Shown: positions 3,448-31,450, counted from the first letter of the stretch. The stretch is DNA of 32,000 bases from Tannockella kyphosi (GCF_021054785.1 NZ_CP088239.1:1170001-1202000); one strand, 5' to 3'. Program-made: numbers and translations. Notes: generated from the sequence alone by a model not told the origin.

Positions 3448-3464
3448 TTGGGAGGGATACGAAG

Positions 3465-12246: not shown

Positions 12247-12269
12247 AATCACTCCTCCTCCCTATTCTT

Positions 12270-12923: not shown

Positions 12924-12947
12924 ATGTACACCACCCTTTCTATTTGG

Positions 12948-13760
12948 TTACTTTGCAGTAATTAATACTAATTCATTTGATAACAATTCATAGACATTAT
13001 CCTCATCAATATAACCTAACTCCTCTAGTGTCTCTACTTCACTAGTTGATGCTGATATAAAAATATCCGTTATAGCACCATATTGAATCTGTGATGATAA
13101 TGTCCCACTTGAATCAAAACTTGCTATAATCTCTACTCCTTCATGTTCTTCCATAAACATGTTCGAAATCTCACTAATCGACTCCATTAAACTAGCAGCA
13201 GCAAAAATAGTAATAGTACAAGCTTCTAACTCTACTTCTTGTTCTATTGATTCTTCTGGCAAATAGGTAAATCCATTTTCTTCAAAAATAGCTATTGCAG
13301 TTGCTGTTGTTAAATAGTCCATAAAACATTGAACTGCTTCTTGATTCATTGAATCATTCATAATAGCAGCTGGATAAATAACAGGACTCTCTAATAAAGA
13401 ACTATCGATTGTTTCAACTACATAAACACCATCACTTGTAATAGCATCCGTTGCATATACAATACCACAACTAACAGACCCTAGTTCTACTTGAGATAGC
13501 ACTTCTTTTACACTACTGGCATAAGAAATTTTACTTTCAATTTCATCCCATATACCATAATTTACTAAAGCTTCTTTGGCATAACGGCCAACTGGTACAT
13601 CATCATTACCAAGAGCGATAAGGGATACACTATCTGTTGTTAAATCTAAAAGAGATGTAAGAGTAGTTTCTTGATTACTTGTATTTGCACTACATCCATT
13701 CAGTAGTATCATTGTAGCTATTAAGAAAGTTACTGTTATATTTTTTATGTTTACTTTCAT
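12948..13760 (-). CDS. modA: Molybdate-binding lipoprotein ModA, circularly permuted
   Basis: Lipobox LLNGC. All ModA motifs are present but in swapped order (see finding). The ATG at 13760 is preceded by GAGGAGGGG, whereas the ORF-track start at 13781 is a TTG. Confidence 0.85.
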   Translation of the reverse strand: MKVNIKNITVTFLIATMILLNGCSANTSNQETTLTSLLDLTTDSVSLIALGNDDVPVGRYAKEALVNYGIWDEIESKISYASSVKEVLSQVELGSVSCGIVYATDAITSDGVYVVETIDSSLLESPVIYPAAIMNDSMNQEAVQCFMDYLTTATAIAIFEENGFTYLPEESIEQEVELEACTITIFAAASLMESISEISNMFMEEHEGVEIIASFDSSGTLSSQIQYGAITDIFISASTSEVETLEELGYIDEDNVYELLSNELVLITAK

Positions 13761-13789
13761 TATCTTCCCCTCCTCATTCAATTATCTTT

Positions 13790-14782
13790 CTAACCACCTA
13801 TTTGTGACATTGATTTTTGTTCACTACTTTCAATACCTTTTTCTAAAAAACCATGTGCTTTGGGTTTTCTTTGAATCGTTTTTATAATAGCATCTTCGAT
13901 TTCTTGATTAGAAGAACCATTTCTTAATAAAGATAATAAATCACTTCCAATATCATATTGTAAACATGTTTTTAAGTATCCTTTTGAACTTAGTCTAACA
14001 CGATTACAAGAATCACAGAACTTATGGCTAATAGCACTAATAAAACCAACTTTACCCATAAACCCTTCTACTTCAAAATAACGACTAGGACCATGACCTA
14101 ATTTTCCTTCGTATTCCTTTATTTTACCAAAGTTAGCAGTTAATAAATCTTTAATTCTTTGTTCTTGATCAATATATTGTTTATCATCATCGATCATTTC
14201 TTTTCCCATACCAATTGGCATTAATTCAATAAAACGAACATGTATATTTTTATTTTTTGCAAGCAATACAATGTCCATAATTTCTTGATCACTAATATTA
14301 TTAGAAACACAATTTGTCTTTAAATTAATATTTGGATACGCTAATACTTTATCCATGGATGATAACACATCTTCTATTTTACCACCTCTAGTAAGTAATG
14401 AAAAATGAGTAGCATCTAATGTATCCAAACTAACATTAATAGCATCTAAGCCAGCTTTACTTAACTTATCAATATTATCTTCTAATAATATTCCATTAGT
14501 AGTAATTGAAACAGATTCAATACCTTCTATTCCTTTTATCTCTTTAATTAATTGATCAATTCCTTTACGAACCAAAGGTTCTCCACCTGTGAGTTTGATT
14601 TTTTTTACGCCAAGCTTTGCAAAAATAGAACATAGTTTGATTATTTCATCATAACGAATAATTTCATCATGTGATATTTGTTCTATTCCTTTTTCCGGCA
14701 TACAATAGACACATCTTAAATTACATCGTTCCGTCACAGAAATACGAACATAATCAATATTTCTTCCATAATTATCTATCAT
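13790..14782 (-). CDS. moaA: GTP 3',8-cyclase (radical SAM, Moco biosynthesis step 1)
   Basis: YVRISVTERCNLRCVYCMP radical-SAM motif, C-terminal FCDSCNRVRLSSKGYLKTCL cluster motif and a GG tail. Confidence 0.95.
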   Translation of the reverse strand: MIDNYGRNIDYVRISVTERCNLRCVYCMPEKGIEQISHDEIIRYDEIIKLCSIFAKLGVKKIKLTGGEPLVRKGIDQLIKEIKGIEGIESVSITTNGILLEDNIDKLSKAGLDAINVSLDTLDATHFSLLTRGGKIEDVLSSMDKVLAYPNINLKTNCVSNNISDQEIMDIVLLAKNKNIHVRFIELMPIGMGKEMIDDDKQYIDQEQRIKDLLTANFGKIKEYEGKLGHGPSRYFEVEGFMGKVGFISAISHKFCDSCNRVRLSSKGYLKTCLQYDIGSDLLSLLRNGSSNQEIEDAIIKTIQRKPKAHGFLEKGIESSEQKSMSQIGG

Positions 14783-14809
14783 TCTTCTCTCCCTCTATTT
14801 CTTCATTTA

Positions 14810-15241
14810 CTATTCAAGAATTTTTAAAATATCCCCTTCTTTAATAGAACCACCTTCTAATACAATCGCAAAGACACCTTCTCTAGGCATAATGCAATCA
14901 CCCATTTTTTTAAAGATTTCACATCCATGATGACATTGTTTTCCTATTTGTGTTAATTCTAATAATACATCATTGCAAGCAAATTTTGTACCTATTGGTA
15001 ATGTTTTAAAATCAATTCCTTCTACTAAAAGATTTTCTCCAAAAGAACCATCTACAATAGGTGCTCCTAAATTACGAAACTCCTCTACTTTATCAAAACT
15101 TAATAAACTTACTTGACGATGCCAATTACCAGCATGAGCATCATTTTCAATACCAAAATTAACAATAAAATTTGCTTGATGAATATTTTGTTTTTGAACT
15201 CCTTTTTTTTCACTAATACATACTGCTTTTACCATTCCCAT
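14810..15241 (-). CDS. Stand-alone MOSC-domain protein
   Basis: 143 aa. MVKAVCISEKKG...HRQVSLLS...GENLLVEG...IGKQCH is typical of short MOSC proteins found in moa operons. Confidence 0.75.
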   Translation of the reverse strand: MGMVKAVCISEKKGVQKQNIHQANFIVNFGIENDAHAGNWHRQVSLLSFDKVEEFRNLGAPIVDGSFGENLLVEGIDFKTLPIGTKFACNDVLLELTQIGKQCHHGCEIFKKMGDCIMPREGVFAIVLEGGSIKEGDILKILE

Positions 15242-15259
15242 AATCTTTCTTCCCTTCTC

Positions 15260-16252
15260 TTATTTTAAGTTTGCTCTTACTAGAATTAATTGAGCTGCAA
15301 TACTAATTGCTATTTCAGCTGGTGTTTCACTTTTAATAGAAATACCTATTGGTGTTGTAATACGACTTATATCTTCTTCATTAAATCCTTTTTCCATTAA
15401 CTTTGCTTGTACTGTTTTAATTTTACTACGACTTCCAACCACTCCGATATAACAAGCAGGTGTTTTTAAAGCAAACTCTTGGACGTATTGATCTCCTAAG
15501 TGACCTCTAGTTACAGCGATAATATAATCATGGTTAGTGACTTGATAATATGCTTGATATTCCATCAATTGTTCATAATGACAAACATTCGTATCAATTG
15601 CATCTGGAAACAACTCTTTTTTACTAAAGTCTTCGCGATCATCACTAACAATACAACGAAATCCTAAATGTGATAAAACTGGTACTAACTCTTGAGCTAA
15701 ATGTCCTCCACCAAAAATAAAGACACGACTTTTGTTTTCAATCTTGTGGACATAATAGCAATCTTGTCCTACTTTCATTAGACCTGCTTGTAAGTTATTA
15801 CAATCAATTCCTGTTATCCCTATTATTTCATCTTCATAGCAGTATCCCACTTGCATACCATCCATCGATAAAACAAGCCAACCTAATTGATTAGAGACCA
15901 TATGATTTGTTAATGTTTCAATCAAAGAAGCATCTTTTTGATAAGAAATGTAACTGAATAATACATCTACATCTCCTCCACATACCATACCTAAATTTGC
16001 TGATTCCTCAATTCGTAAACGATACTGTTTTAACTCCCCTGTTTTGTTTTGTAAATGTATTTTGGCTAATTCAATTGATTGAAATTCCAACATCCCACCA
16101 CCAATAGTACCACTCATTAACCCATCTTTATCCACTACCATAAATGCTCCCGTAGTTCTAGGTGCACTACCAACATTATCAACAATTGTTACTAACATAC
16201 AATCTTCACTAACATCTAATTTTTTAGTTAACGATCTTATTATTTCTTTCAT
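15260..16252 (-). CDS. XdhC/CoxI-family molybdenum cofactor insertion/maturation chaperone
   Basis: XdhC_CoxI N-domain (VGSAPRTTGAFMVVDKDGLMSGTIGGG) plus a Rossmann-like C-domain (VFIFGGGHLAQELV). The ATG at 16252 follows the upstream stop and a GGGGAAAAAG RBS. Confidence 0.85.
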   Translation of the reverse strand: MKEIIRSLTKKLDVSEDCMLVTIVDNVGSAPRTTGAFMVVDKDGLMSGTIGGGMLEFQSIELAKIHLQNKTGELKQYRLRIEESANLGMVCGGDVDVLFSYISYQKDASLIETLTNHMVSNQLGWLVLSMDGMQVGYCYEDEIIGITGIDCNNLQAGLMKVGQDCYYVHKIENKSRVFIFGGGHLAQELVPVLSHLGFRCIVSDDREDFSKKELFPDAIDTNVCHYEQLMEYQAYYQVTNHDYIIAVTRGHLGDQYVQEFALKTPACYIGVVGSRSKIKTVQAKLMEKGFNEEDISRITTPIGISIKSETPAEIAISIAAQLILVRANLK

Positions 16253-16262
16253 ACTTTTTCCC

Positions 16263-17294
16263 CTATTTCCCGAATCCACAATTCGGGAAAGTACAAATAT
16301 CACAACCTAAACAAAGTCCACCTTCACCTAGTCTATCTATCATTTCTCTATTTATTGGCACATCTGCCATTACTTTTGGTAAAACAAGATCAAAAATAGT
16401 TCGTTTTGCATACATTACACATCCAGGTAACCCCATTATTGGTTTATTATCTTTTGAATATGCCATCAAGAACATTGCTCCTGGTAATACTGGTGCCCCA
16501 TAAGTAATAATAGTAGCTCCACTATTTTTAATAGATAATGGTGTTTTATCATCTGGATCCACACTCATCCCACCAGTACAAATAATCATATCAACACCTT
16601 TATCTAACATATCTTGAATAATAAGGGTTATTTTTTCAAAATCATCATCTACTATTTCATGAAGTACCATTTCTCCACCAAACTCTGCTAGTTTATCTTG
16701 AATAACTGGAGTAAAGGTATCTTGAATACGTTTATGATAAATTTCATTACCTGTTGTGATAACACCATATTTCTTCGTTTGAAAAGGAATCACATTTAGT
16801 AATGGTTCTCCATTAGAAACCTTTACTACTGTTTCTTTTGCCTTTTCCATCTTTTCTTTTTCTATTACCAAAGGAATAATACGAGTTCCTGCAAGTTTGT
16901 CTCCCTTTTTAACAGCAAAACCACCATGTCTAGATGCAATCATCATTTGTCCAAAAGAATTAATAGCGTTTATCCCTTCTTTATGAACACATAACAAACC
17001 ATCACAATTTGCAATCAATTCTATTTTTCCTTCTTTTACTTTTCCAGCAACAATATTACTACCCATTGCTAGTTCCTTAAGAATCTCTGCTGCATCATTT
17101 TCATGTAACATCGTTTCATCATTTTCACAAATATAAATATGATCTTTTCCAACAGACAATAAAACAGGAATATCCTCTTCTTTTATTAGATGCCCTTTTG
17201 AAAAAACAACATCTTTTGTAACCCCTCTTATAATTTGAGTAATATCGTGATATAACACTTGTCCTACTGCATCCACCGTTTTGATACTTTTCAT
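16263..17294 (-). CDS. Molybdopterin-binding (MoCF_BD/MoaB-MogA-like domain) protein with a C-terminal Cys cluster
   Basis: VITTGNEIY...MIICTGGMSVDPDDKTP is a MoCF-binding domain signature. The C-terminus is CLGCDICTFPNC. GGGAGG lies 7 nt before the ATG at 17294. The ATG at 17300 overlaps the upstream TGA and is also possible. Confidence 0.7.
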   Translation of the reverse strand: MKSIKTVDAVGQVLYHDITQIIRGVTKDVVFSKGHLIKEEDIPVLLSVGKDHIYICENDETMLHENDAAEILKELAMGSNIVAGKVKEGKIELIANCDGLLCVHKEGINAINSFGQMMIASRHGGFAVKKGDKLAGTRIIPLVIEKEKMEKAKETVVKVSNGEPLLNVIPFQTKKYGVITTGNEIYHKRIQDTFTPVIQDKLAEFGGEMVLHEIVDDDFEKITLIIQDMLDKGVDMIICTGGMSVDPDDKTPLSIKNSGATIITYGAPVLPGAMFLMAYSKDNKPIMGLPGCVMYAKRTIFDLVLPKVMADVPINREMIDRLGEGGLCLGCDICTFPNCGFGK

Positions 17295-17296
17295 TT

Positions 17297-18376
17297 TCAT
17301 TCCTCCCTAATAAAAGCATTCCTTATTTTTTCTTCTACCTTTAATGCTTGTAAATATCGTTCTTGATGTTTTTCAATTGCTTCTTGCGTGCAACATTTAC
17401 GAAGACTTGCTTCAAATCTTTGTTGTAAGGATACCCTTAATGTTCCTTGTACTAATTTATCTGCATAATACAAAATCATTGCCTCATCTAATAATGCATC
17501 ACCTTTGATATCATGATGAAGTTGGATAATAGACCCTAATTGAATATATCCTAAATGATATAATTGTTCCTTTGCTAGTAATGGATGATCTTTGCCATGA
17601 TGACGCATCATATCATGTAACAAAGCACTAGTTAGAAGCAATTCTTTATCCAATGAACATTGATCTTTTAATAATTCATATAATTCAAGGCAAACACGTT
17701 GTACCTCATAGCTATGTTCTATGACTACTTGTGGTGTTTTACATTGAAAGAATATTTGTTCTATTTCTTGATGACTAGGGATTGAATCCCTTTTTTTATT
17801 TATTGCAACAAAGTTCCACTTCTTTTCCTCTATTTCCACTACACTAAGAGTTCCATAATCAACACGTGGCATTCCATCTTTACAAGGATCTAAATTTTCT
17901 AATTTATGTACTAACGCTCGTATTAATCCATCATGAATAACAAGCACTAAGTCACTAGATTTATTTAAAAGTAAGAACTGTATTGTTTTGATAAGGCGGT
18001 TTACACCATCTTCTAATGTCTCCCCATTACTAGGGACTATCGACCAATCTTTTCCTCTTTGTTGATAAAGAGTTGGATATAGTTCTTGAATTTGTTGGAA
18101 TGTCTTTCCTTCAAAATCTCCCATATCTAATTCTTGCAAAGAAACAATTGGTTGATATTTTTGTTGAACAGAAACCATTTCTAAAGCACTTTGATAACTC
18201 CTTGCTAGATTACTACAATAAATAGTGTCGATGTTTGAAAAACAATCTTTCCATACTCTTACTTGTTCTTTCCCTTCTTTTGATAAAAACAAGTCTGTTT
18301 GACTACCTATACAGATTTTCTTTCCCTCTTTAAATAGTGGTTTTCCATGACGAATTAAATAAACATATCTTTTCAT
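17297..18376 (-). CDS. Fusion protein: histidine-phosphatase (PGM/CobC-like) N-domain + HD-domain phosphohydrolase C-domain
   Basis: N-domain: YLIRHGKP (RHG motif), SNLARSYQSA, VIHDGLIRAL. C-domain: ALLHDMMRHHGKDH...QLHHD...YYADKL, the HD metal-binding pattern resembling YqeK-type HD hydrolases. Confidence 0.7.
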   Translation of the reverse strand: MKRYVYLIRHGKPLFKEGKKICIGSQTDLFLSKEGKEQVRVWKDCFSNIDTIYCSNLARSYQSALEMVSVQQKYQPIVSLQELDMGDFEGKTFQQIQELYPTLYQQRGKDWSIVPSNGETLEDGVNRLIKTIQFLLLNKSSDLVLVIHDGLIRALVHKLENLDPCKDGMPRVDYGTLSVVEIEEKKWNFVAINKKRDSIPSHQEIEQIFFQCKTPQVVIEHSYEVQRVCLELYELLKDQCSLDKELLLTSALLHDMMRHHGKDHPLLAKEQLYHLGYIQLGSIIQLHHDIKGDALLDEAMILYYADKLVQGTLRVSLQQRFEASLRKCCTQEAIEKHQERYLQALKVEEKIRNAFIREE

Positions 18377-18389
18377 TTTTCATCCCTCA

Positions 18390-19232
18390 CTACTGCTTTA
18401 TAATAATTGCAGTTCCATGCAAATCACAAAGTTCTACTAATACCAATGATCCATATTCTTTTTCATAATCCTCAACTGCTTTTTTAACTCCTTGAAATCT
18501 TTGATTCCCATAATCATGTAATAAAATAATAGCTCCTTTATTCATTCTTTTAATAAACCACTTTAATCCTTCATAAGTAGGTGTATAAAGATCTACATCA
18601 ATACTAACTAAAGCAAAGGTTTCTTCTATCCCGATTGTTGTATCTGGAAAATAACCTTCTTTTATAATTACCTGACTAGGATTCGATAATTTTTCTAAAA
18701 CCATTTGAATACTAGTATTTTGAAATTCTTCTTTATATGCTTTTGATAATCCTGTTTCATTTTCCATTTGAATATCTCGTTCATCAAAACCATTAAATGT
18801 ATCAAATAAATATAATTTTCTTCTAGGAAAAACTGCATTTAATACTTTAGAGAATTCTCCTTGAAAAACTCCTAATTCCGCTACTGCTCCTTCGATATCT
18901 TTTAATCTATCTTTTAATTTGATAGTAAAAGCACTACGAATATCAATTGCTTCTATTAATTTGGTTATTTCAATAATTTCTTTATTATAACCATTATGAT
19001 GTAATTGTTTGATTATTTCAGTTTGACGTTCTATTCCTGTAACAGCCACTAAAATAACATCAATAGGCAATAATAATGCTTCTTCCATTGTATAAAGAGG
19101 AATATTTTTAATCATTGTTTGTTCTTTCTTTGCATTATCACCAAAACCTATTAAATGATAATGTTTTTGATTGATGAGAGGTAATACTGCTTGACCCATC
19201 TGTCCTGCTCCAAAAATTAATAAATTTTTCAT
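18390..19232 (-). CDS. TylF/MycF-family class I SAM-dependent O-methyltransferase with an N-terminal Rossmann-like extension
   Basis: ELGVFQGEFS...LYLFDTFNGF...SIDVDLYTPTYEGL...ILLHDY matches the macrocin-O-methyltransferase family pattern. The N-terminus is LLIFGAGQMGQAV. The ATG at 19232 follows AGGGGGA and the upstream TAA. Confidence 0.65.
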   Translation of the reverse strand: MKNLLIFGAGQMGQAVLPLINQKHYHLIGFGDNAKKEQTMIKNIPLYTMEEALLLPIDVILVAVTGIERQTEIIKQLHHNGYNKEIIEITKLIEAIDIRSAFTIKLKDRLKDIEGAVAELGVFQGEFSKVLNAVFPRRKLYLFDTFNGFDERDIQMENETGLSKAYKEEFQNTSIQMVLEKLSNPSQVIIKEGYFPDTTIGIEETFALVSIDVDLYTPTYEGLKWFIKRMNKGAIILLHDYGNQRFQGVKKAVEDYEKEYGSLVLVELCDLHGTAIIIKQ

Positions 19233-19233
19233 T

Positions 19234-20160
19234 TTATTCCCCCTTACCAAAATGCTTTGTGAATGATTGTTCACTAAAAGCAGTAACTTCTTCTATATAC
19301 ATTTCATATTTATTTAATAATTCTTTTCCTTCTTTAGTAAGACTACTTGTACCTCCATATTCTCCTCCTTGCCTTCTTTCCAACAAAGAAAAACCAAAAG
19401 CCTGTTCCATTTCTTTAATCATTATCCAAGCTTTACTATAAGAAATACCAATTTTATCACATGCATCTTTTACTGTTCCTGTATATTCAATAGCTTGTAA
19501 TAAAACAGTAGAGGTTTTATCTAATATCTTTTTTTCTCTAATAATAGAAATATCAATAATTGGTCTTAATAACTGTTCACTATGCATTTTTACTAAACGT
19601 TCATAATCACCCATCGTATCAGCATCTCTTAAAACACCTTCATCATCTACTTGTAAAATATCAATTTTAGGACAACATTCATAAATCATTGCTTTTAAAC
19701 CATCATTTCTTTTACAAGCGATTATTTTTGGTAATATTTTATTAGAAAATAGGATTGGATGACCATCTTCATTATCACAAACAGGTTTAATAAAATCGAC
19801 ATTCGTTTGCATCAATCTACGTACTGTACCTACCGTAAACAAAGGAACATCTACTGGTGTAAAGAAAACTCGATCACATTTATCTAATAGAAATGAAAAT
19901 CCCATTTTTGCTGAATCAGACATTTGTGTTGTTTCATAGGAATCATTACGAATATAAATAACACCTTGTTTTGCAATATGTTTTTCTAATTCTGCTGCCC
20001 GATATCCTGTTACTACCACAATTGGTGATACTCCCGCTTGTTGAAAGTTTGCAATAATTCTTTTTACAATCGTAATAGAACCCATTTTCATCATTGGTTT
20101 AAATTCACCCATTCTACTAGACATCCCAGCTGCTACAATCACAGCTCCTGTTCTTTGCAT
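19234..20160 (-). CDS. Fusion: MocA/MobA-like molybdenum cofactor nucleotidyl(cytidylyl)transferase + ModE-N-type winged-helix DNA-binding domain
   Basis: The N-terminus AVIVAAGMSSRMGEFKPMMKMG is the MobA-like NTP-transferase P-loop. C-terminal residues about 200-290 read GTVKDACDKIGISYSKAWIMIKEMEQAFGFSLLERRQGGEYGGTSSLTKEGKELL. These align with E. coli ModE ISQGAKDAGISYKSAWDAINEMNQ...VERATGGKGGGGAVLT. No Mop/TOBE domain is present. Confidence 0.8.
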   Translation of the reverse strand: MQRTGAVIVAAGMSSRMGEFKPMMKMGSITIVKRIIANFQQAGVSPIVVVTGYRAAELEKHIAKQGVIYIRNDSYETTQMSDSAKMGFSFLLDKCDRVFFTPVDVPLFTVGTVRRLMQTNVDFIKPVCDNEDGHPILFSNKILPKIIACKRNDGLKAMIYECCPKIDILQVDDEGVLRDADTMGDYERLVKMHSEQLLRPIIDISIIREKKILDKTSTVLLQAIEYTGTVKDACDKIGISYSKAWIMIKEMEQAFGFSLLERRQGGEYGGTSSLTKEGKELLNKYEMYIEEVTAFSEQSFTKHFGKGE

Positions 20161-20264: not shown

Positions 20265-22616
20265 TTAGATAAGTGTTTCCACAAAATCTCTTACCATTGT
20301 ACGTAAGGATTCTACTTTATAACCATTATCTCTCATTACCATGACATTTTCCACTGCCACTTCACTAGCTTTTAACGCTAATTCTTTGCTTGGAACTTGT
20401 CCTTTTAATACTTCTTCTACTGCACTTGCACGGAATGGAACTGGTGCAACTCCACCAAATACCAAACGAATATCTTCAATAGTTCCATCTACAACTTTAA
20501 TATCACTAGCAACTGCTACTAATGCAAAGTCAATTGCTTTACGTAAACGGAATTTAGCATAATCACTCTTCCATCCATCTCTTGAAGGAATATGAATTGC
20601 TTTTACTAATTCTCCTCTTTCAAGTTTATATTCTGGACGTAATTTATCGCTAAAGAATTCTACTCCAGATAATGTACGTACTGTTGTTTCTACAGTTACA
20701 TCTAAAGCTAATAACATATTGGCCATATCAGAAGCGTTCGAAGAATAACATCCACAGTTCATACAACGGCTTGCTTCTACTGCTGCTTCCATTTCTGTTA
20801 ATGAACTAGAATCTTCTACATCTAAACAACGTTTTTCTACTGGTGTATCCACTAATTGAGATGCTTTTACTAATTTTACTCCTTCAGGATCAAATGTTAA
20901 GAAAGCTTCTTTTTCAATTTCTAAAACCATTGGCATACCCATGTATTTTGTCATATTTCTAGCTGCATTTCCTCCAGCACGAACTGCTTGAATAGCTAAA
21001 GAAGGTCCTGTTGCAACATCACCACCAGCATAAACACCAGCATGACGTGTATCATTATGTTCTCCAACTTCAATTAATCCTCTTACTGATTGAATTTCAT
21101 CTTTAAAATGATCTCCTAAGAAATCCAAATCAACTCTTTGACCTGTTGCTAGGATAATACTTGGTGTTTCAATAAATGAAACATCTGCTTCATCATATAC
21201 AGGACTAAAACGTCCTTTTTCATCAAATACATGAAGACATTTTTTAGTTTCTAATCCTAATACTTTATCACCTTCATAACGAACTTTGTTTAATCCAAGT
21301 CCATTTAAGATAATAACACCTTCTTCTAATGCACGATCTACTTCTTCTTTTGATGCTGGCATTTGTTCTCTTTGTTCTAGACAAACTAAAGTAACTTTCT
21401 TAGCTCCCAAACGTTTTGCTGTTAATGCTACGTCCATCGCAACATTCCCACCACCACATACTAATACTTCTTCGTCAATTTTACTTGTCATCCATTGTTT
21501 TACTTCAACTAAGAAATTTAAACCAAATTGAGTTAAATTTTCACCATCAATTCCTAAAATAGGTTGTTTCCATGCTCCTGTATCGATGAACACTGTATCA
21601 AAAGTTTCTTCTACTTCTTCAAAAGAAATATCTTCTCCTACTGTTGTATTAAATTTAAATACAACTCCCATACCTTCAATAGCACTATTATATTCACGCA
21701 TTAATGCTTTTGGTAAACGATATTCTGGTATACCGTACATTAATACCCCACCAGCTTCTGGCATTTTTTCAAAAATTGTTACTGCATGTCCCATTTTTCT
21801 TAAATAGAATGCGGCTGCTAATCCTGCTGGACCACTACCTACAATCCCAACTGATTTTCCTGATTCACTACTTGGTGCAGGGAAATAAGTTGATTTATTT
21901 TTCAAGATATAATCACCTAATGTACGTTCAACTGCATGAATATTAACAGAATCACCATGGTTACTTTGATTACATTTTGTTTGACAAGTATGAGGACAAA
22001 CTCTACTTGTTAACATTGGCATTGGGTTTGCACGTAATATTATTTTGGCAGCTCCATCCCAATCACCTTGTCTAATTTTTTCCATATATCCAGAGATATC
22101 AGTTCCAGCTGGACATTCATTACTACATTTTGTACGAGCTGTTTTCATACCTCCAAAAATACTATGATAACGATTATCTCCTAATACTGCATAGCATAAA
22201 TCCCCATCTTTACGTGCACAATCAAGGCGGCCACCTTGGTTATGCGGATAACGATAATACCAACAACGTACATCTTGGCAAATATTACCACCAATAGTCG
22301 CTGCATTACGGATAATAGGTGTTGCAACGCTGTTAGCAGCTTTGCGTAAACCTGTTGGAACAGATTCATCATCAGATATTTCTGACAATGTATTCATTGC
22401 ACCTAGTACGATAGAACCATCTTCATTAACTGTAGTTTCTTTAGCACCTATTGTTTTAAGATCAACTACAACATCAGGAGTTTTTTCTAATATGGCTGAT
22501 TTCATCAAGCCAACAAGATCCGTACCTCCAGCAATGGAAGTCCCACTTTTTGACACTTTGATAAGTTCTGAGGCTTCTTCAAATGTCTTTGCTTCTTTAT
22601 GTTCAAACTTTCTCAT
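20265..22616 (-). CDS. Module 1 flavoprotein: CoxM/XdhB-type FAD-binding subunit with an inserted four-Cys loop and GltD-like NAD(P)H:FAD/Fe-S oxidoreductase module
   Basis: N-terminal part: FAD_binding_5-like (SIAGGTDL, ATIGGN). Central part: GltD-like CSNECPAGTDI...NPMPMLTSRVCPHTCQTKC, GIVGSGPAGLAAAFYL, VCGGGNVAMDVA, YAGGDV. C-terminal part: ASDMANMLLALD plus a CO_deh_flav_C-like tail (VFGGVAPVPFRA). Confidence 0.85.
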   Translation of the reverse strand: MRKFEHKEAKTFEEASELIKVSKSGTSIAGGTDLVGLMKSAILEKTPDVVVDLKTIGAKETTVNEDGSIVLGAMNTLSEISDDESVPTGLRKAANSVATPIIRNAATIGGNICQDVRCWYYRYPHNQGGRLDCARKDGDLCYAVLGDNRYHSIFGGMKTARTKCSNECPAGTDISGYMEKIRQGDWDGAAKIILRANPMPMLTSRVCPHTCQTKCNQSNHGDSVNIHAVERTLGDYILKNKSTYFPAPSSESGKSVGIVGSGPAGLAAAFYLRKMGHAVTIFEKMPEAGGVLMYGIPEYRLPKALMREYNSAIEGMGVVFKFNTTVGEDISFEEVEETFDTVFIDTGAWKQPILGIDGENLTQFGLNFLVEVKQWMTSKIDEEVLVCGGGNVAMDVALTAKRLGAKKVTLVCLEQREQMPASKEEVDRALEEGVIILNGLGLNKVRYEGDKVLGLETKKCLHVFDEKGRFSPVYDEADVSFIETPSIILATGQRVDLDFLGDHFKDEIQSVRGLIEVGEHNDTRHAGVYAGGDVATGPSLAIQAVRAGGNAARNMTKYMGMPMVLEIEKEAFLTFDPEGVKLVKASQLVDTPVEKRCLDVEDSSSLTEMEAAVEASRCMNCGCYSSNASDMANMLLALDVTVETTVRTLSGVEFFSDKLRPEYKLERGELVKAIHIPSRDGWKSDYAKFRLRKAIDFALVAVASDIKVVDGTIEDIRLVFGGVAPVPFRASAVEEVLKGQVPSKELALKASEVAVENVMVMRDNGYKVESLRTMVRDFVETLI

Positions 22617-24957: not shown

Positions 24958-25452
24958 TTATTCCTCCTTTCCATTAATTGAGCTAATTGCTTCTAAAACA
25001 CGATATTGACTAATACATCTGCATAAATTTCCTGATAATGCTTCAGAAATATCTTCTTCTGTAGGGTTTGGATTACGGATAAATAAAGCTCTAGCCGCAA
25101 TTACAATACCTGGTGTACAGAATCCACATTGGAATGCAGAATAATCAAAAATAGCTTGTTGAATAGGGTCTAATTTCCCAGTTACTGGATCAGCAAGACC
25201 TTCAATTGTAACGATCTTCTTCCCTTCACATTCCACTGTTAAAGTGACACATGAAGCTTCTGCTTTATCGTCAATAAGCACTGCACAAGCACCACAGCAC
25301 CCTTCACCGCAACTTAATTTTGTACCTGTTAATCCAAGACGTTCACGAATTGTATTTACCAATAATTCATTGGTAGGAATTTGCCCCATCTTGTCGCCAA
25401 TCATAAATTCATAGTCTTTACCATTGACATTTAGTGTTACAGTATCTCTCAT
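24958..25452 (-). CDS. Module 1 [2Fe-2S]x2 small subunit
   Basis: Contains CGEGCCGAC...C and FQCGFCTPG...CRC motifs. AAGGAGG RBS. Confidence 0.93.
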   Translation of the reverse strand: MRDTVTLNVNGKDYEFMIGDKMGQIPTNELLVNTIRERLGLTGTKLSCGEGCCGACAVLIDDKAEASCVTLTVECEGKKIVTIEGLADPVTGKLDPIQQAIFDYSAFQCGFCTPGIVIAARALFIRNPNPTEEDISEALSGNLCRCISQYRVLEAISSINGKEE

Positions 25453-25590: not shown

Positions 25591-26244
25591 ATGACACAAC
25601 CAACTAAAAAACAAATAACACATGAAAAGATACTAACAAGTGCCATCTACTTATTTTCAATTTATGGTTACGAAGGCACTACCACTCGTATGCTTTCAAA
25701 AGAATCTGGATATAATATTTCAACTATTTTCCATCATTTTGAAAACAAAGAAGGTTTATATATTGCCGCCATGAATCATATGGCCCAAGAAATGAATAGC
25801 CATTTACTCCCAACAACGATCAAAGTAAATAAACGACTTGAAGAAGAGTGTTCTATTGAAGAAGCATGGGAATTAATTGAAGAATTCATTACACTTCTTG
25901 TTATGACATTATCTAGTCCTACTCAAAAGAATACATTCTTTCTACTAATCAGAGAACAAACTAGTCCTCCAAAAGGAGACTTCCCACTCTCTCGAGTAAT
26001 CTATGACAATGTAGAACATCCAATTAAAAACTTACTTCAAAGAATATACCCAGATATAACTCATACTACCCTTGCTTTGCATGCTAGAATGATTACTGGT
26101 GGAATCATTTCCCAAGTAGAACACCCAGTGTTTTTACGCTGGATGTTAGGTCTACCAGACGACGCTGATATAAAACCTCGTGTTTGGGAAAAAGTAAAAG
26201 ATTTATGTATGATATATATAAATACCGATTTAAATAACGATTAA
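25591..26244 (+). CDS. TetR/AcrR-family transcriptional regulator
   Basis: The N-terminal HTH region ILTSAIYLFSIYGYEGTTTRMLSKESGYNISTIFHHFENKEGLY is classic TetR_N. Confidence 0.9.
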   Translation: MTQPTKKQITHEKILTSAIYLFSIYGYEGTTTRMLSKESGYNISTIFHHFENKEGLYIAAMNHMAQEMNSHLLPTTIKVNKRLEEECSIEEAWELIEEFITLLVMTLSSPTQKNTFFLLIREQTSPPKGDFPLSRVIYDNVEHPIKNLLQRIYPDITHTTLALHARMITGGIISQVEHPVFLRWMLGLPDDADIKPRVWEKVKDLCMIYINTDLNND

Positions 26245-26705
26245 GCGTGTGGTGGAATACCAAGCGCTTTTTTTACTAATGGAATACCTGTACATAATCC
26301 AATATTTTGTGATAACCAAGTTAAGAATAATGATAATGGATAAGATGCTACTACTGATGCTACATAGAAATCTTGGTAACCAGGAACATCTTTCATTCCC
26401 CACCAAGTCATGAATGAACTCATAATAGTAGCCATAATTAATGCCACTAATACAGTAGATACTAATTGATGTTTAATATCTCTTCTGTCTAATTTAAATA
26501 AATCACCAAACTTATTCCCTAAAGGAGCAATTGGTAAGAATGTCATTAAAATAAACCCTATAATAACACCTAATACATAACTACTTGCAAAACTAGATAA
26601 TGTTAAACCTGTTCCATTTGCAATAGGTACAATTGTATTTAAGAAAATATTTAAAATCAACGATACCCACGCATTTAATAATACATCAAACTTTGTTATT
26701 TTCAT
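26241..26705 (-). CDS. Small integral membrane protein (about 4 TM, two-repeat appearance; possibly DUF2798-like)
   Basis: 154 aa with four hydrophobic segments. GGGAGG lies 7 nt before the ATG at 26705. Its stop overlaps the TetR stop. Confidence 0.55.
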   Translation of the reverse strand: MKITKFDVLLNAWVSLILNIFLNTIVPIANGTGLTLSSFASSYVLGVIIGFILMTFLPIAPLGNKFGDLFKLDRRDIKHQLVSTVLVALIMATIMSSFMTWWGMKDVPGYQDFYVASVVASYPLSLFLTWLSQNIGLCTGIPLVKKALGIPPHA

Positions 26706-26722
26706 TTGTCTGCCTCCCATGA

Positions 26723-26777: not shown

Positions 26778-29144
26778 TTATTTTACTGCTAAAATATTAC
26801 GAATTACTAAAGCTTTGATTTCAGTAATTTTATAATTATTATGTTCCATTGCAATTGCATCTTTAATAGCAAGAGCTCCAGCACTTTCAGCTACTTCTTC
26901 ACTAATCGCTTTACCTTTTAAGAAAGCTTCTACTTCATCTAATTTATATGGTACTGGTGCAACTCCACCTAATACTAATTTAGCATCTTCAATAACTCCA
27001 TCTACTACTTTGAAAGCAGAAGATAAACTTACGATTGCAAAATCCATCCCATCACGGACACGGAATTTATCATAACTAGAAGTATATCCTTCTAATACTG
27101 GTACTTGAATTTCAGTTACTAATTCACCATGTTCTAACATATCTTTTGTTTTTAGTTTTGTAGTAAAGAAGTCAACAGCTTTGATTTCTTTTTTAGTAGT
27201 AACAATTGTTCCATCTAACATCACTAATACTGGTGAAATATCAGAAGCATTTACTGAGTAACATCCACAATTCATACAACGTTTTGCTTCTTTTGAAGCT
27301 AATTCAAGAGATAATGATTTTTCATCTTCATCCACTAATGTACGACTAGCTACAGGAAGTTCTTCTAACTTACAAGATTCTTCTACTTTTACACCTTCTA
27401 CATCAAAAGTCTTATAACCTTTTTCAGATGCTTCACGTTTGATTGGATATCCCATTTTTGCACTCATAGAATGAGCTGCTAAGTTACCTGCATGAATTGC
27501 ACGAATTGCAATATTAGGTCCTGTAACAACATCCCCACCTGCAAAGAATTTTTCATTTTTAGTTTGATAAGTTTCTTCATCTACTTCTAATAAACCACGT
27601 TCTGATTTAATTTGAGAAGCGAACTCATCACCTAAGAAGTCTACGTCTACACGTTGACCTGTTGCTAAGATAATACTATCTGATGTAAATACAGTAGTTT
27701 CATCATGATCATATACTGGTGCAAAACGATTTTTTTCATCAAAAACACTTACGCATTTCATTGATTCTAAACCACTTACTTTTCCATCGGCATCTTTGAT
27801 AACACCTTTTAGACCCCAACCATTTTCAATTTCAATACCTTCTTCTAAAGCTCTTGCAATTTCTTCTTTTGTTGCAGGCATTGCTTCTCTTGATTCAAGA
27901 CATACTAATTTAACACTCTTAGCTCCTAAACGTCTTGCTGTTAATGCTACGTCCATCGCAACATTACCACCACCACAAACTAATACGTTTTCACCAGTAG
28001 CTTTTTGTAAGAATGTATTTACATCTTGTAAGAAGTCTAAACCAAATTGAGTTAATTCTTCTCCTGTAATACCTAATACTGGTTGTTTCCAAGCACCTGT
28101 ACCAAAGAATACAGTATCAAAACGCCCTTCCACTTCTTCCATTGATATTTCTTTACCAACAGTAGTATTCATTTCAAAAGTAACTCCCATACCTTCCAAA
28201 GCACTTGCATATCCTTCTACAATATCCTTAGGTAAACGATAATGAGGAATACCATACATTAATACCCCACCAGCTTTTTCATGAGAATCAATCACAGTAA
28301 CACTATGTCCTTGACTTCTTAAATAATAAGCAGCAGTTAAACCACCAGGACCAGCTCCAATAATACCAACAGATTTACCTGTTTCAGCTTTTGGTGCTAC
28401 ATAGAATTTTTCTTTATTTTCTAAAATATAATCTCCTAATGTACGTTCCACACAGTGAATAGCTACGCTATCACCATTTTTATCATGGTTACATCTGTCT
28501 TCACAAGGATGTGGACAAATTCTTGAAGTACACATTGGCATTGGGTTTACACGCATAATTATTTTTGCAGCTTCATCCCAGTTCCCTTTTCTAATTTCAC
28601 CCATATAAGAGGAAACATCAGTTCCAGCAGGACAACCTTTTGTACAAGCACTAGTTACAATTTTCATACCACCAAATACAGAATGATAACGATTTTCTCC
28701 TAATACTGCAAAACATTCTTCTCCACCTTTTTGTTGACATACCATTTTCCCACCAACATCTTCAGGATAACGATAATACCAACAACGAACATCTTGACAA
28801 ACATTCCCACCAATAGTTGCAGAATTACGAACTAATGGAGTTGCTACCGATTTTGCAGCTTGGCTTAACGCTGGTGCCCCAGCTAATAATTCTTCTGATT
28901 TTTCTAAGCAACCTAACTTTGTGATAGCACCAATTTTAATAGTCCCATCTTGTGCAGTTACATAAGATCCACCATCTACTTTTCTTAAACTTACTAATTC
29001 TTCTGGATATTTTGTTAAAATATCACTTTTTAATTCAAAAATTAAATCTGTACCACCAGAAACTGGTACACTATTTTCATTTGCTTTTATTATTTCTGCA
29101 GCTTCATCAAATGATTTTGCAGATTTGTATCCAAATTTTTTCAT
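26778..29144 (-). CDS. Module 2 flavoprotein: same CoxM-FAD / four-Cys loop / GltD-like mosaic as module 1
   Basis: Collinear with 20265-22616: VSGGTDL, ATIGGNVCQDVRCWYYRYP, CTKGCPAGTDV, IIGAGPGGLTAAYYL, VCGGGNVAMDVA, FAGGDV, CMNCGCYS, ASDISPVLVMLD, LGGVAPVPYK. Confidence 0.85.
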   Translation of the reverse strand: MKKFGYKSAKSFDEAAEIIKANENSVPVSGGTDLIFELKSDILTKYPEELVSLRKVDGGSYVTAQDGTIKIGAITKLGCLEKSEELLAGAPALSQAAKSVATPLVRNSATIGGNVCQDVRCWYYRYPEDVGGKMVCQQKGGEECFAVLGENRYHSVFGGMKIVTSACTKGCPAGTDVSSYMGEIRKGNWDEAAKIIMRVNPMPMCTSRICPHPCEDRCNHDKNGDSVAIHCVERTLGDYILENKEKFYVAPKAETGKSVGIIGAGPGGLTAAYYLRSQGHSVTVIDSHEKAGGVLMYGIPHYRLPKDIVEGYASALEGMGVTFEMNTTVGKEISMEEVEGRFDTVFFGTGAWKQPVLGITGEELTQFGLDFLQDVNTFLQKATGENVLVCGGGNVAMDVALTARRLGAKSVKLVCLESREAMPATKEEIARALEEGIEIENGWGLKGVIKDADGKVSGLESMKCVSVFDEKNRFAPVYDHDETTVFTSDSIILATGQRVDVDFLGDEFASQIKSERGLLEVDEETYQTKNEKFFAGGDVVTGPNIAIRAIHAGNLAAHSMSAKMGYPIKREASEKGYKTFDVEGVKVEESCKLEELPVASRTLVDEDEKSLSLELASKEAKRCMNCGCYSVNASDISPVLVMLDGTIVTTKKEIKAVDFFTTKLKTKDMLEHGELVTEIQVPVLEGYTSSYDKFRVRDGMDFAIVSLSSAFKVVDGVIEDAKLVLGGVAPVPYKLDEVEAFLKGKAISEEVAESAGALAIKDAIAMEHNNYKITEIKALVIRNILAVK

Positions 29145-29158
29145 TTTCGTCTCCCCCC

Positions 29159-31450
29159 TTACGCTTTACCTAAAGCTTTTAAAATTGCTGCAGGTGTTGC
29201 AGGATATTCAATAAAGTCTTTTCCAATTGCGTTAGAAATAGCCATTGAAACTGCTGAAGGACCAGGAGCACCTGAGATTTCTCCAAATCCAATTGCTTTG
29301 AATGGAGATATATCATATTGTGATTCTAAGATTACGGAATTGAATTCAGGGAATTCATTAAATAATCTCCACTTGTAATCAATCATATTAGCAGTCATTA
29401 AACGACCTTGTGTTGTATCTAAGACATGTCCATCAATTAAACCTGTGTCTAATGCTGCAGAACCAATACATCCTTGGAATTGTAATTCTAATGTTGCTGG
29501 ATCTAACATTTGACCTACATCAGTACCACCAGTTACATTAATTAATGTAGTTTCTCCAGTATCAGTATCTACTTCTACTTCTACAAATAACATACAGAAG
29601 TTAGGAATAGCAAATTGTTCTTCATATTTACCAACTCCAGTCATTGTATGACCAAATCCAATGATTGGCATCCAAGGAACACGTACTTCTGGTTTATCTT
29701 TTAAATAAATAAATCCATCTTCCGTATCTACTGCTTCTACTGGGCAGTGTAAGAATGCTGCACCTTTTTCTAATAATTCTTGTTTTACTTTTTTAGCAGC
29801 TTCCCCAACTGCAGTACTTACAACGATAGTCCCTCTTGATCCTACTAATCCAAATTCATGAGGATTTACTAAGTTATCTGCATCTGTAATTCTTACTTTT
29901 TCAAAAGGCATATTTAAGATTTCTGCTGCTGCTTTAATAGCTTGGTTTCTTTGCCCTTGTCCTGCTTCTGCTACTGTACAATGTACAACTGCATACCCAT
30001 AAGGTTCCAAACGAACATATGCTTCTGAACAGTCTTCACCAACATCACAGTTACCATGTAAACCGACACCAACACCACGTACTTTTGAACCATTTACAGA
30101 AGTTGGTTTATACCATCCTTTGAATTTGTCAGCCCACTCAAATTTTTGTGCTGCTTGAGTCATAGCTGGACGATAGTCTGCATATTTACATACCCAGTTA
30201 GTACCATCTCTCCAAGTATATGGATCTCCTTCTTTTACAAAGTTGTTTTTATAAAATTCTACAGGATCTAAATCAAGTTTGGCTGCACATTGTGAAATAA
30301 TAGGCATTAACGCTGATTTTAATTCTTGTCCACCAAATCCACGAACTACCCCTGCAGGTTCTTTGTTTGTATAATAAATATCTGCTTTAAAGTCCCAGTT
30401 TTTACACTTAGCACATACTAATTGCATTTCTCCTAGACCTACACCCATTTGTGCTTGTCCAATATCATTACAACTTCCTGTGTCAATCATCCAGTTCCCT
30501 TGCATTGCATGAACTAAACCATCTTTAATACCAACCTTCAAAGTCATATGAGAACCTAAACGAGTTTCATAAGCTAATAATTGTTCTGATTTCGTATAAA
30601 TGAATTTTACAGGTCTATTTGTTACTAACGCTAATGCGGATGCATGCATACACATACAAGTAATGTGATTTTTATTACCATAAGAACCACCTACGTTGAA
30701 ACTTTCAGAACGTACAATAACATCTGGCATTTTTGTTGATAATTGAATTCTAAGTAAGTTTGGACTTTGACTAGAAGCTCTAATATATAAGTTTCCTGGT
30801 TCTGTCCATTGTGCTAATACTGCAGGTGTTTCCGGAGCTAATGGTGCATGAGATGCACTATATGATGCAGTTCCTTCTACAACAGCGTCACATTCTTCAA
30901 ACGCTGATTCTACATCACCTTTATCAATATGTTTAAACTCTACCCCATGTTCTCCTAATGGAAACCCTGGTAATCCAATCCCATAAGGAACTTTGTTTCC
31001 AGGAATATGATCATAAAATTGAATTGCATCTGGTTGTGATGATTCCATCGGTGTATAATATGGTTTTAATATTTCATATTCTACCTTAATTAATTTTAAT
31101 GCTTCTTCCGCAATTTCAGGAGTTTCCGCAGCAACGGTTGCAACTGGATCCCCTACATAACGAAGTCTACGATCAAAAATTGGTTTATGATATGGAAATC
31201 CTAAAGACCATTCTTTACATTCTTCTGGTAAGTTTTCCAAACATAAAACAGCTTTAACCCCATCCACTTTTTGTGCTTCACTAATATCAATACTTACGAT
31301 ATTTGCATGAGGATGTGGACTTTTTAACATTTTTGTATATAACTGACGAGGTAAGTTATAGTCATCTAGAAAAGTTGCTCTACCTGTTACGATATCTCTT
31401 GCTTCTCTTCTTGGTGTGTTCTTACCGACATAACGATAATCTGGTTTCAT
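29159..31450 (-). CDS. Module 2 molybdopterin-binding large subunit (XDH/CoxL family)
   Basis: Motifs GKNTPRREARDIVTGRATFLDD, LKSPHPHANI, GGSYGNK, VRGFGGQE and GFGEISGAPGP. The start ATG shares one nucleotide with the stop of the small subunit (TAATG). Confidence 0.9.
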   Translation of the reverse strand: MKPDYRYVGKNTPRREARDIVTGRATFLDDYNLPRQLYTKMLKSPHPHANIVSIDISEAQKVDGVKAVLCLENLPEECKEWSLGFPYHKPIFDRRLRYVGDPVATVAAETPEIAEEALKLIKVEYEILKPYYTPMESSQPDAIQFYDHIPGNKVPYGIGLPGFPLGEHGVEFKHIDKGDVESAFEECDAVVEGTASYSASHAPLAPETPAVLAQWTEPGNLYIRASSQSPNLLRIQLSTKMPDVIVRSESFNVGGSYGNKNHITCMCMHASALALVTNRPVKFIYTKSEQLLAYETRLGSHMTLKVGIKDGLVHAMQGNWMIDTGSCNDIGQAQMGVGLGEMQLVCAKCKNWDFKADIYYTNKEPAGVVRGFGGQELKSALMPIISQCAAKLDLDPVEFYKNNFVKEGDPYTWRDGTNWVCKYADYRPAMTQAAQKFEWADKFKGWYKPTSVNGSKVRGVGVGLHGNCDVGEDCSEAYVRLEPYGYAVVHCTVAEAGQGQRNQAIKAAAEILNMPFEKVRITDADNLVNPHEFGLVGSRGTIVVSTAVGEAAKKVKQELLEKGAAFLHCPVEAVDTEDGFIYLKDKPEVRVPWMPIIGFGHTMTGVGKYEEQFAIPNFCMLFVEVEVDTDTGETTLINVTGGTDVGQMLDPATLELQFQGCIGSAALDTGLIDGHVLDTTQGRLMTANMIDYKWRLFNEFPEFNSVILESQYDISPFKAIGFGEISGAPGPSAVSMAISNAIGKDFIEYPATPAAILKALGKA

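Follow-up and report, generated by a model that had tools for sequence, protein, structure and literature searches.

UxdC-type FAD subunits with a GltD/NfnB-like insertion in two predicted molybdenum enzymes of Tannockella kyphosi

Introduction

The uxdFOC operon of Enterocloster asparagiformis encodes a 10-hydroxy-urolithin dehydroxylase, and its expression in Clostridium sporogenes led to 10-dehydroxylation of urolithins (Pidgeon et al., NPJ Biofilms Microbiomes 2025, PMC12658268). The same report draws attention to the "additional length" of the coenzyme-binding subunit UxdC, in which AlphaFold3 placed two flavin adenine dinucleotides (FADs) at opposite ends, with a likely 4Fe-4S relay; the insertion topology, the ligands and the donor were not described. 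Here, we analyzed two extended FAD subunits, F1 and F2, encoded in a 32,000-nucleotide stretch of the Tannockella kyphosi genome (GCF_021054785.1, NZ_CP088239.1:1170001-1202000), referred to as the window, within which all positions are counted. They belong to two tandem three-gene modules on the minus strand, S2-L2-F2 at 31956-26778 and S1-L1-F1 at 25452-20265, where S is a [2Fe-2S] subunit and L a molybdopterin catalytic subunit. F1 (20265-22616, stop codon included) has 783 amino acids (aa) and is 100% identical to the NCBI entry "FAD-dependent oxidoreductase" of T. kyphosi (Erysipelotrichales, Coprobacillaceae), and F2 (26778-29144, minus strand) has 788 aa. An earlier note, made from the sequence of the window, had read both as CoxM/XdhB-type FAD subunits carrying a complete GltD-like module and had known of no characterized enzyme with this nested arrangement. 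Such an enzyme exists in UxdFOC. Its locus (L068) was recognized by a gene lying 2.5 kb upstream of it that encodes a protein with all seven published UcdO site residues, and UxdC (L068:8001-10433) has the same split-domain layout, with FAD_binding_5 interrupted between profile positions 113 and 114 and followed through Fer4_20 and Pyr_redox_2 to CO_deh_flav_C. Thus, the nested architecture itself is not new; the additions made here to the Uxd report are a proposed double nesting, a permuted Fer4_20, the C621-G-C623 junction, a ligand proposal, an NfnB-like Glu and a predicted preference for NADH.

HcrCAB of Thauera aromatica (1RM6), a 4-hydroxybenzoyl-CoA reductase (hereafter 4-HBCR), is a molybdopterin cytosine dinucleotide (MCD) enzyme that carries out reductive dehydroxylation with inverted electron flow. 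Its FAD subunit HcrB carries an additional [4Fe-4S] loop that follows the GGN motif, and the CQDxRC...C...C pattern of this loop aligns with F1, but HcrB lacks a GltD-like cassette, takes its electrons from free ferredoxin and has Cys155 where F1 has Tyr150. A four-Cys loop with the fourth Cys spaced as C623 of F1 is also found in PaoB of Escherichia coli PaoABC (5G5G), the FAD subunit for which a preprint describes a four-Cys [4Fe-4S] motif, and in the medium subunit of a Methylobacillus aldehyde oxidase (5Y6Q). These two differ from F1 in that no cassette lies between the third and fourth Cys, they are oxidative, and neither has a Cys at the position of C113. StnC and NfnA (Bfu-type NfnABC; 8OH5 and 9BOV) carry a cassette of the same boundaries (approximately residues 100 to 569, with a terminal RCxECGC) that also lies mid-chain, preceded by an N-terminal domain and followed by one resembling NuoG/Fdh. 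It is the entry point of NADPH electrons, which pass from FAD through two [4Fe-4S] clusters to the next cluster (PMC10482914, PMC11829005). The host domain there is a different one, and Lys170 and YRR replace the Glu230 and CLE of F1. NfnB/NfnL of NfnAB(SL) and GltD resemble F1 in fold and in their FAD and NAD(P)H motifs, and NfnB shares with F1 a Glu at the ligand position of the proximal cluster; they differ in being free-standing, with RCxxC at the N terminus and NfnA or GltB as partner, neither of which is encoded in the window.

Other candidate relatives were dismissed. UcdCFO (Ucdh), the urolithin 9-dehydroxylase, has a short FAD subunit (UcdC) of the ordinary kind, which lacks a 4Fe-4S loop. 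In the 2,8-dioxopurine pathway, DOPDH (XdhAC) lacks an FAD subunit, and YgfK works as an enzyme of its own, NADPH:2,8-dioxopurine oxidoreductase (DOPOR) (bioRxiv 10.1101/2025.04.24.650524). The Geobacter 4-HBCR PcmRST, considered as a possible carrier of the insertion, was dropped, as two Geobacter genome papers make no mention of one. A literature search for fused HcrB/GltD returned nothing relevant.

An insertion within the FAD_binding_5 domain

The insert of F1 comprises residues 112 to 628 (517 residues), corresponding to positions 20733-22283 as the earlier note had placed it, and all of the motifs listed there were recovered: GGN (residues 109 to 111), Cys 113, 118, 133 and 141, C164, C168, C207, C211 and C215, GSGPAG (260 to 265), GGGN (388 to 391), GGDV (531 to 534), CMNCGC (618 to 623) and SD (629 to 630). 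Residues 1 to 111 (22284-22616, minus strand) form the N-terminal half of a CoxM-type FAD_binding_5 domain, with AGGTD at 29 to 33 and TIGGN at 107 to 111. Residues 624 to 783 (20268-20747, minus strand) contain the C-terminal part of this domain and then CO_deh_flav_C. In the Pfam search, FAD_binding_5 was matched in two stretches on F1, the first being residues 3 to 114 on profile positions 2 to 113; the C-terminal piece searched by itself covered positions 114 to 169, confirming that the domain is interrupted between profile positions 113 and 114. Fer4_20 (residues 161 to 240) and Pyr_redox_2 (255 to 548) lie between the two stretches, and CO_deh_flav_C (692 to 780; 54.6 bits against a cut-off of 25.5) follows, which is the domain order that had been expected. 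When residues 1 to 111 were joined to residues 626 to 783, FAD_binding_5 was matched in one stretch over positions 2 to 169 of 170 (E = 4.5e-25). The split match and the splice construct indicate that the flanks are halves of one FAD_binding_5 fold, and that this is a true insertion rather than an end-to-end fusion.

The same layout is present in F2, where the insert spans 27246-28802 and contains a loop (28665-28802), a cassette (27264-28664) and the adjoining C628 codon (27261-27263). It is essentially certain that F1 and F2 are CoxM/XdhB-type FAD subunits with a nested architecture. Conservation was counted over 189 distinct relatives, among which G30, G31, D33, T107, G109, G110 and N111 of the host domain were invariant. 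F1 and F2 share 54% identity, compared with full-length identities to UxdC of 51% for F1 and 55% for F2, and conservation is higher in the insert than in the host domain, with a mean top-residue frequency of 0.75 to 0.86 versus 0.57 to 0.60. These values bear out the suggestion that the arrangement is old and under selection.

A search of 185,579 species genomes gave 537 genomic matches, of which 80 loci were kept, and these align over nearly the whole 783 aa of F1. A survey for nested proteins of approximately 780 aa, as the earlier note had advised, found that almost all of the best-scoring 120 protein clusters were 781 to 792 aa, with one fragment of 708 aa. Approximately 30 full-length representatives of 50%-identity clusters share the layout, down to 35% identity to F1, and 68 of 73 related loci retain the gene order S-L-F. 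The long open reading frame (ORF) could be an error of assembly or annotation, in which a missed stop or frameshift joined a CoxM-like gene to a GltD-like gene, but the probability of this is negligible: the insert breaks into the host domain instead of being attached to its end, and the domain resumes in frame after 517 residues, the residues at the junctions are invariant, and the layout occurs twice in this window as well as in the 80 loci examined of the 537 matches and in the cluster representatives.

Two variants of the subunit were seen among the relatives. In Enterocloster citroniae (locus L009, 10436-12127), the gene next to that of a full-length F subunit, directly behind it, encodes a 563-aa paralogue. 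Retained in this protein are the Cys loop, Fer4_20, GxGxxG, RCLNCGC, the C-terminal portion of FAD_binding_5 and CO_deh_flav_C, whereas the N-terminal half of FAD_binding_5 is missing, as is the NAD(P)H subdomain. A metagenomic cluster representative of 1,730 aa (P0129) contains an L subunit (residues 28 to 744) and a nested F subunit (906 to 1726) in one chain, so that L and F of this enzyme type are fused.

A GltD/NfnB-like cassette with a permuted Fer4_20 domain

The larger part of the insert is a GltD/NfnB-like cassette (residues 158 to 622; 20751-22145, minus strand), in which Fer4_20 is followed by an FAD fold (GSGPAG), an NAD(P)H fold (GGGNVAMD, 388 to 395), a linker and RCMNCG (617 to 622). 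Fer4_20 and Pyr_redox_2 were matched with 70.6 and 108 bits, respectively. The closest solved relatives by sequence were StnC of Sporomusa ovata (8oh5_C) and NfnA of Caldicellulosiruptor (9bov_A), with F1 residues 160 to 625 corresponding to residues 100 to 569 of these chains (E = 1e-77 to 1e-87); NfnB, NfnL and GltD came next in the ranking, and 4ylf_B was also matched. An AlphaFold2 model of F1 had a predicted local distance difference test (pLDDT) score of 83 and a predicted template modeling (pTM) score of 0.81, with low confidence only at the cluster loop (118 to 138) and at 350 to 366. A Foldseek search with this model ranked the relatives as the sequence had, with a target-normalized template modeling score (TMt) of 0.75 to 0.77 and a root mean square deviation of 3.2 Å to NfnL/NfnB, and the fold matches included 5jca_L and 4ylf_B. 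No PDB entry spanning both the host domain and the insert was found by Foldseek (best query-normalized score [TMq], 0.53).

In its native order, the Fer4_20 match covered profile positions 29 to 111 only, and the usual N-terminal RCxxC was missing. When residues 586 to 622 were placed ahead of residues 161 to 250, the match extended over positions 9 to 111 and the score rose to 94.6 bits, whereas a control with another Cys-rich segment in front gave positions 30 to 111 and 68.8 bits. The permuted RCxxCG thus restored positions 9 to 28 and added 24 bits over the native order, and all eight cluster-ligand positions of the GltD/NfnB type are filled only when it is counted. The RCMNCGC motif had earlier been taken for part of a linker; its RCxxCG instead appears to be the displaced N-terminal part of Fer4_20. 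Since permutation restores the domain, the two ends of the cassette would build one Fe-S domain and meet at the predicted distal cluster of the cassette, which would explain why the cassette fits into a loop.

A cassette with the same boundaries (approximately residues 160 to 625 of F1, with a terminal RCxxCGC) was also found in the multi-domain proteins P0170, P0207 and P0254, where the accompanying domains are nitroreductase, FAD_binding_2 or thiamine pyrophosphate (TPP)-enzyme domains. Its mid-chain position in StnC and NfnA as well suggests that the cassette is a reusable plug-in module for electron input. It offers an example of modular evolution, with one cassette lying mid-chain in StnC/NfnA and recurring with similar boundaries in other multi-domain proteins.

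Placement of the cassette within a predicted PaoB/HcrB-type [4Fe-4S] loop

The first part of the insert, residues 112 to 157 (22146-22283, minus strand), contains C113, C118, C133 and C141 and corresponds to the [4Fe-4S] loop of the PaoB/HcrB type. F1 was spliced with these residues kept and aligned to 1rm6_B (HcrB), 5y6q_B and 5g5g_B (PaoB), and the construct aligned end to end with all three. C122, C138 and C146 of HcrB corresponded to C118, C133 and C141 of F1, and the Cys of PaoB and 5y6q_B aligned likewise; in addition, the HcrB model TIGR03195 matched F1 residues 4 to 156 on profile positions 5 to 159. The loop Cys of F1 were invariant in 184 to 186 of the 189 relatives, the remainder being gaps. 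C113 (codon at 22278-22280), which has an equivalent in F2, is invariant and is matched by C117 of HcrB.

The loops of PaoB and 5y6q_B have exactly four Cys each, and the fourth stands 6 residues before SD(M/L)A. The same spacing is seen in F1 for C623 (C623-YSSNA-S629-D630; codon at 20748-20750, minus strand), the proposed fourth ligand of the loop cluster, which lies two residues after C621 and is invariant in all 189 relatives. By virtue of this PaoB-like spacing, the cassette (158 to 622) is placed between the third (C141) and the fourth (C623) predicted ligands of the loop. As judged from these alignments, the insert of F1 is made up of two layers, an outer PaoB/HcrB-type loop and, inside it, the GltD/NfnB-like cassette. 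The earlier placement of the module in a surface loop held as far as insertion into a loop is concerned, but that loop corresponds to the existing [4Fe-4S] loop of the PaoB/HcrB type, so the nesting is read as double.

Predicted ligands, electron transfer chain and donor

The ligands of the FAD-proximal cluster A7 of NfnA are Cys108, Cys147, Cys151 and Lys170 (NfnA structure paper), and NfnB has a Glu where StnC has the Lys (StnC paper). With an offset of 60 in the alignment, the A7 ligands map to C168, C207, C211 and E230 of F1, which are predicted to hold the cluster proximal to the distal FAD. The remaining Fer4_20 positions and the permuted RCxxC would provide C164, C215, C618 and C621 for the distal cluster of the cassette, and the pattern of PaoB and 5y6q_B assigns C118, C133, C141 and C623 to the host loop cluster. 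The twelve assigned Cys and E230 are invariant or nearly so among the relatives, as are R300, GxGxxG, GGGN and S629-D630. Of the Cys in the Rossmann part, C412 and C460 are nearly invariant, while C387 is present in 175 of the 189.

Adjacent Cys in dicluster ferredoxins may serve different clusters. C621 and C623 are two residues apart and are assigned to different clusters, so the exit cluster of the cassette and the host loop cluster should be neighbors; we infer from this analogy that C621-G-C623 stitches the two together. Three [4Fe-4S] clusters are thus predicted to wire the distal FAD to the CoxM-type FAD, and the cofactor content per protomer is predicted to be two FAD, three [4Fe-4S], two [2Fe-2S] and one Mo-MCD. 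This count comes from sequence and names ligands that can be mutated.

YRR(T/S) follows the second Rossmann strand in all four NADPH-using relatives (NfnB, StnC and both NfnA). The NADPH-type YRR is absent from F1, which has C412-L413-E414 in its place, and L413 and E414 are invariant in 189 of 189 relatives. A general rule for Rossmann folds is that NADH is preferred where the residue in this place is acidic, and NADPH where arginines are found. Based on this rule and the invariant C-L-E, the donor is predicted to be NADH rather than NADPH.

Proposed function and alternative explanations

We favor, with a probability of about 0.6, a reading of F1 and F2 as NADH-fed electron-input subunits of the UxdC type belonging to two heterotrimeric, reductive, 4-HBCR-like MCD enzymes. 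The PaoB-type loop of a CoxM/XdhB-type FAD domain would have been opened to admit an NAD(P)H:FAD:2x[4Fe-4S] cassette. Electrons would pass from NADH to the distal FAD, then through the proximal, distal and loop clusters to the CoxM-type FAD, and from there through the two [2Fe-2S] clusters of S to the Mo-MCD of L and the substrate. The enzymes would run reductively and remove a hydroxyl group; by analogy with 4-HBCR and UxdFOC, reductive dehydroxylation of aromatic or polyphenol-type substrates is the most likely reaction. UxdFOC shares the S-L-F gene order and a coenzyme-binding subunit of the same layout (approximately 790 to 810 aa), and the S subunits are 52 to 61% identical to UxdF. UxdC differs in having an extra Cys-rich linker stretch after the Rossmann folds, GGCGECGCEKAGCEE, which is absent from F1 and F2 and might bind a further metal site.

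Several points weigh against this reading. Equivalog assignment was taken as a score above the NCBIfam equivalog cut-off, per subunit, and the cut-offs for 4-HBCR, xanthine dehydrogenase, YgfK and GltD were not reached by any subunit. For the 4-HBCR models (TIGR03193, TIGR03194 and TIGR03195), the two modules scored 134.8 (F1) and 136.6 bits against 404.55 for the beta subunit (TIGR03195), 240.9 and 281.6 bits against 994.55 for alpha, and 155.5 and 144.4 bits against 257.8 for gamma. L1 and L2 share only 43 and 45% identity, respectively, with UxdO. The evidence for UxdFOC is from whole cells only, active species have a UxdO identity above 93%, and the homologue of Enterocloster bolteae, a species without 10-dehydroxylation, has a substrate-binding subunit of less than 44% identity and does not act on urolithins (PMC12658268). 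With catalytic subunits at a comparable distance, the Tannockella enzymes should not be called urolithin dehydroxylases; they are further members of the UxdC-type group whose substrates probably differ from those of UxdFOC and, probably, from each other. In the loop, C113 is a 13th conserved Cys outside the proposed clusters and a further candidate for the fourth ligand, and the replacement of HcrB C155 by Tyr in F1 means that the cluster assignment there depends on the PaoB pattern. Nor does the loop cluster determine which way the electrons flow, since PaoABC has it and works oxidatively. Finally, the Glu-ligated proximal cluster of NfnB is of very low potential, and with a cluster of this kind a chain driven simply by NADH is awkward in energetic terms.

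The same architecture could be run in reverse, with both enzymes being molybdenum hydroxylases that oxidize a heteroaromatic or aldehyde substrate and pass electrons from Mo through the clusters and the distal FAD to NAD(P)+; the cassette would then replace an NAD+ site blocked at the CoxM FAD by the [4Fe-4S] loop. PaoB and 5y6q_B, which belong to aldehyde oxidoreductases, have the loop cluster and are as good a match to F1 as HcrB is, the top PDB match of L1 is an oxidative enzyme, 6-hydroxypseudooxynicotine dehydrogenase, and the catalytic Glu near the C terminus of the L subunit is kept. We nevertheless consider oxidation unlikely, as Uxd, the sole characterized enzyme with this subunit, is a reductive dehydroxylase, 4-HBCR subunits are among the best matches of S1, F1 and L2, and transfer toward NAD+ would include a steep uphill step from the Glu-ligated, NfnB-like proximal cluster. 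No genes of purine, nicotinate or similar catabolic pathways were found in the window. In another reading, along the lines of the E. coli comparison drawn in the earlier note, the two enzymes would be xanthine dehydrogenases of purine catabolism that combine YgfM-like and YgfK-like functions. F1 gave partial matches to Se_ygfK, and the L subunits to XdhA/PucD models, but all scores were far under the equivalog cut-offs; the Se_ygfK model (TIGR03315; cut-off, 835.3 bits) gave 242.7 bits for F1 and 234.4 bits for F2, with the alignment confined to the GltD-like core. YgfK is a substrate-reducing enzyme in its own right, gut DOPDH lacks an FAD subunit and makes no use of NAD(P)H, and ssnA, hyuA, ygeW, ygeX and ygeY-type genes are missing from the window. 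The E. coli comparison is therefore a weak one, and a purine-catabolic role is very improbable.

It is also conceivable, although in our view rather improbable, that F is a self-contained flavin-based bifurcating or confurcating device, in which the distal FAD splits the electron pair of NADH or merges NADH with reduced ferredoxin. Low-potential electrons would in this way reach the Mo site for Birch-type aryl dehydroxylation, or ferredoxin in a coupled reduction. Two sequence features linked to bifurcation in NfnB are present and invariant, namely the predicted cluster ligand E230 and, at the N5-contact position, R300 (equivalent to R201 of NfnB and R239 of StnC); the non-bifurcating StnC and NfnA have Lys in place of the Glu, one subunit would hold two flavins, and 4-HBCR needs a low-potential ferredoxin according to the "inverted electron flow" paper. 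Yet the Arg is also kept in the non-bifurcating StnC, where its geometry and not its presence decides; the annotated ORFs of the window include neither an NfnA-like [2Fe-2S]/FAD partner nor a ferredoxin gene; and the single cluster chain that would leave the distal FAD runs to the CoxM FAD.

4-HBCR depends on low-potential ferredoxin. In the enzymes studied here, NADH electrons seem to enter by way of an NfnB-like flavin, and the question of bifurcation thereby becomes directly testable. S-L-F enzymes of this type occur in hundreds of gut and anaerobe species, often in multiple copies (537 genomic matches), and a single member has a known substrate. The group provides candidates for the reductive conversion of dietary polyphenols and other aromatics.

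Genes of the two modules and their neighborhood

The G+C content of the window is low, at 29 to 36%. In both modules, the S and L genes sit directly upstream of F. In module 1, L1 (22633-24957, minus strand) is a 774-aa molybdopterin (MCD-type) catalytic subunit with Ald_Xan_dh_C, MoCoBD_1 and MoCoBD_2 domains (Pfam), and its nearest PDB relatives are 7dqx_A and 1rm6_A. S1 (24958-25452, minus strand), with Fer2 and Fer2_2, is the subunit for two [2Fe-2S] clusters, and its top NCBIfam match was the gamma subunit of 4-HBCR, under its cut-off. In module 2, L2 (29159-31450, minus strand) is the 763-aa molybdopterin catalytic subunit, identified by Pfam, and its nearest PDB relative is the alpha subunit of 4-HBCR, HcrA (1rm6_A, E = 2e-53); S2 (31450-31956, minus strand) is again a 2x[2Fe-2S] subunit. 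A TetR-family regulator with a TetR_N domain (25591-26244, plus strand) is divergent from module 1, and a homologue is present at 19 of the 80 related loci. No inverted repeat was found in a search for a palindrome in the 138-bp region between S1 and the regulator gene. Between the two modules, directly after F2, a hydrophobic ORF of 159 aa (26241-26720, minus strand) matched no Pfam or NCBIfam model, and a homologue was absent from the 80 related loci; it could encode a small T. kyphosi-specific membrane or transport protein.

Downstream of module 1, positions 11209-20160 (minus strand) contain genes for cofactor supply and accessory functions, identified by Pfam: a MocA-like cytidylyltransferase fused to a helix-turn-helix (HTH) domain, a TylF-like methyltransferase, a His_Phos+HD protein, MoCF_biosynth, XdhC, MOSC, MoaA and ModABC. 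The MocA-like, XdhC, MOSC, MoaA and ModABC genes serve the cytosine-dinucleotide molybdenum cofactor and molybdate uptake. Near the S-L-F operons of the 80 loci, MocA-HTH recurs at 33, His_Phos+HD at 26, the TylF-like gene at 18 and XdhC at 12. In the MocA-like protein (19234-20160, minus strand), NTP_transf_3 is fused to a LysR-type HTH, and this protein and the His_Phos_1+HD fusion protein (17297-18376, minus strand) may be specialized partners in cofactor maturation or regulation. The TylF-like methyltransferase (PglD_N plus TylF) is encoded at 18390-19274 on the minus strand. TylF-like methyltransferase and MCD-cofactor genes adjoin uxdFOC as well, which in E. asparagiformis is flanked by two TylF-like copies (L068, 4053-4952 and 10502-11377), and the Ucdh cluster also includes a methyltransferase according to a preprint. 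The remainder of the window holds unrelated housekeeping and sugar genes. A conserved gene pair of no known function, unconnected with the nested subunit, lies at 2755-4463 on the plus strand and encodes a 230-aa NifU-like protein followed by a GGGtGRT protein (PF14057, E = 1.6e-194).

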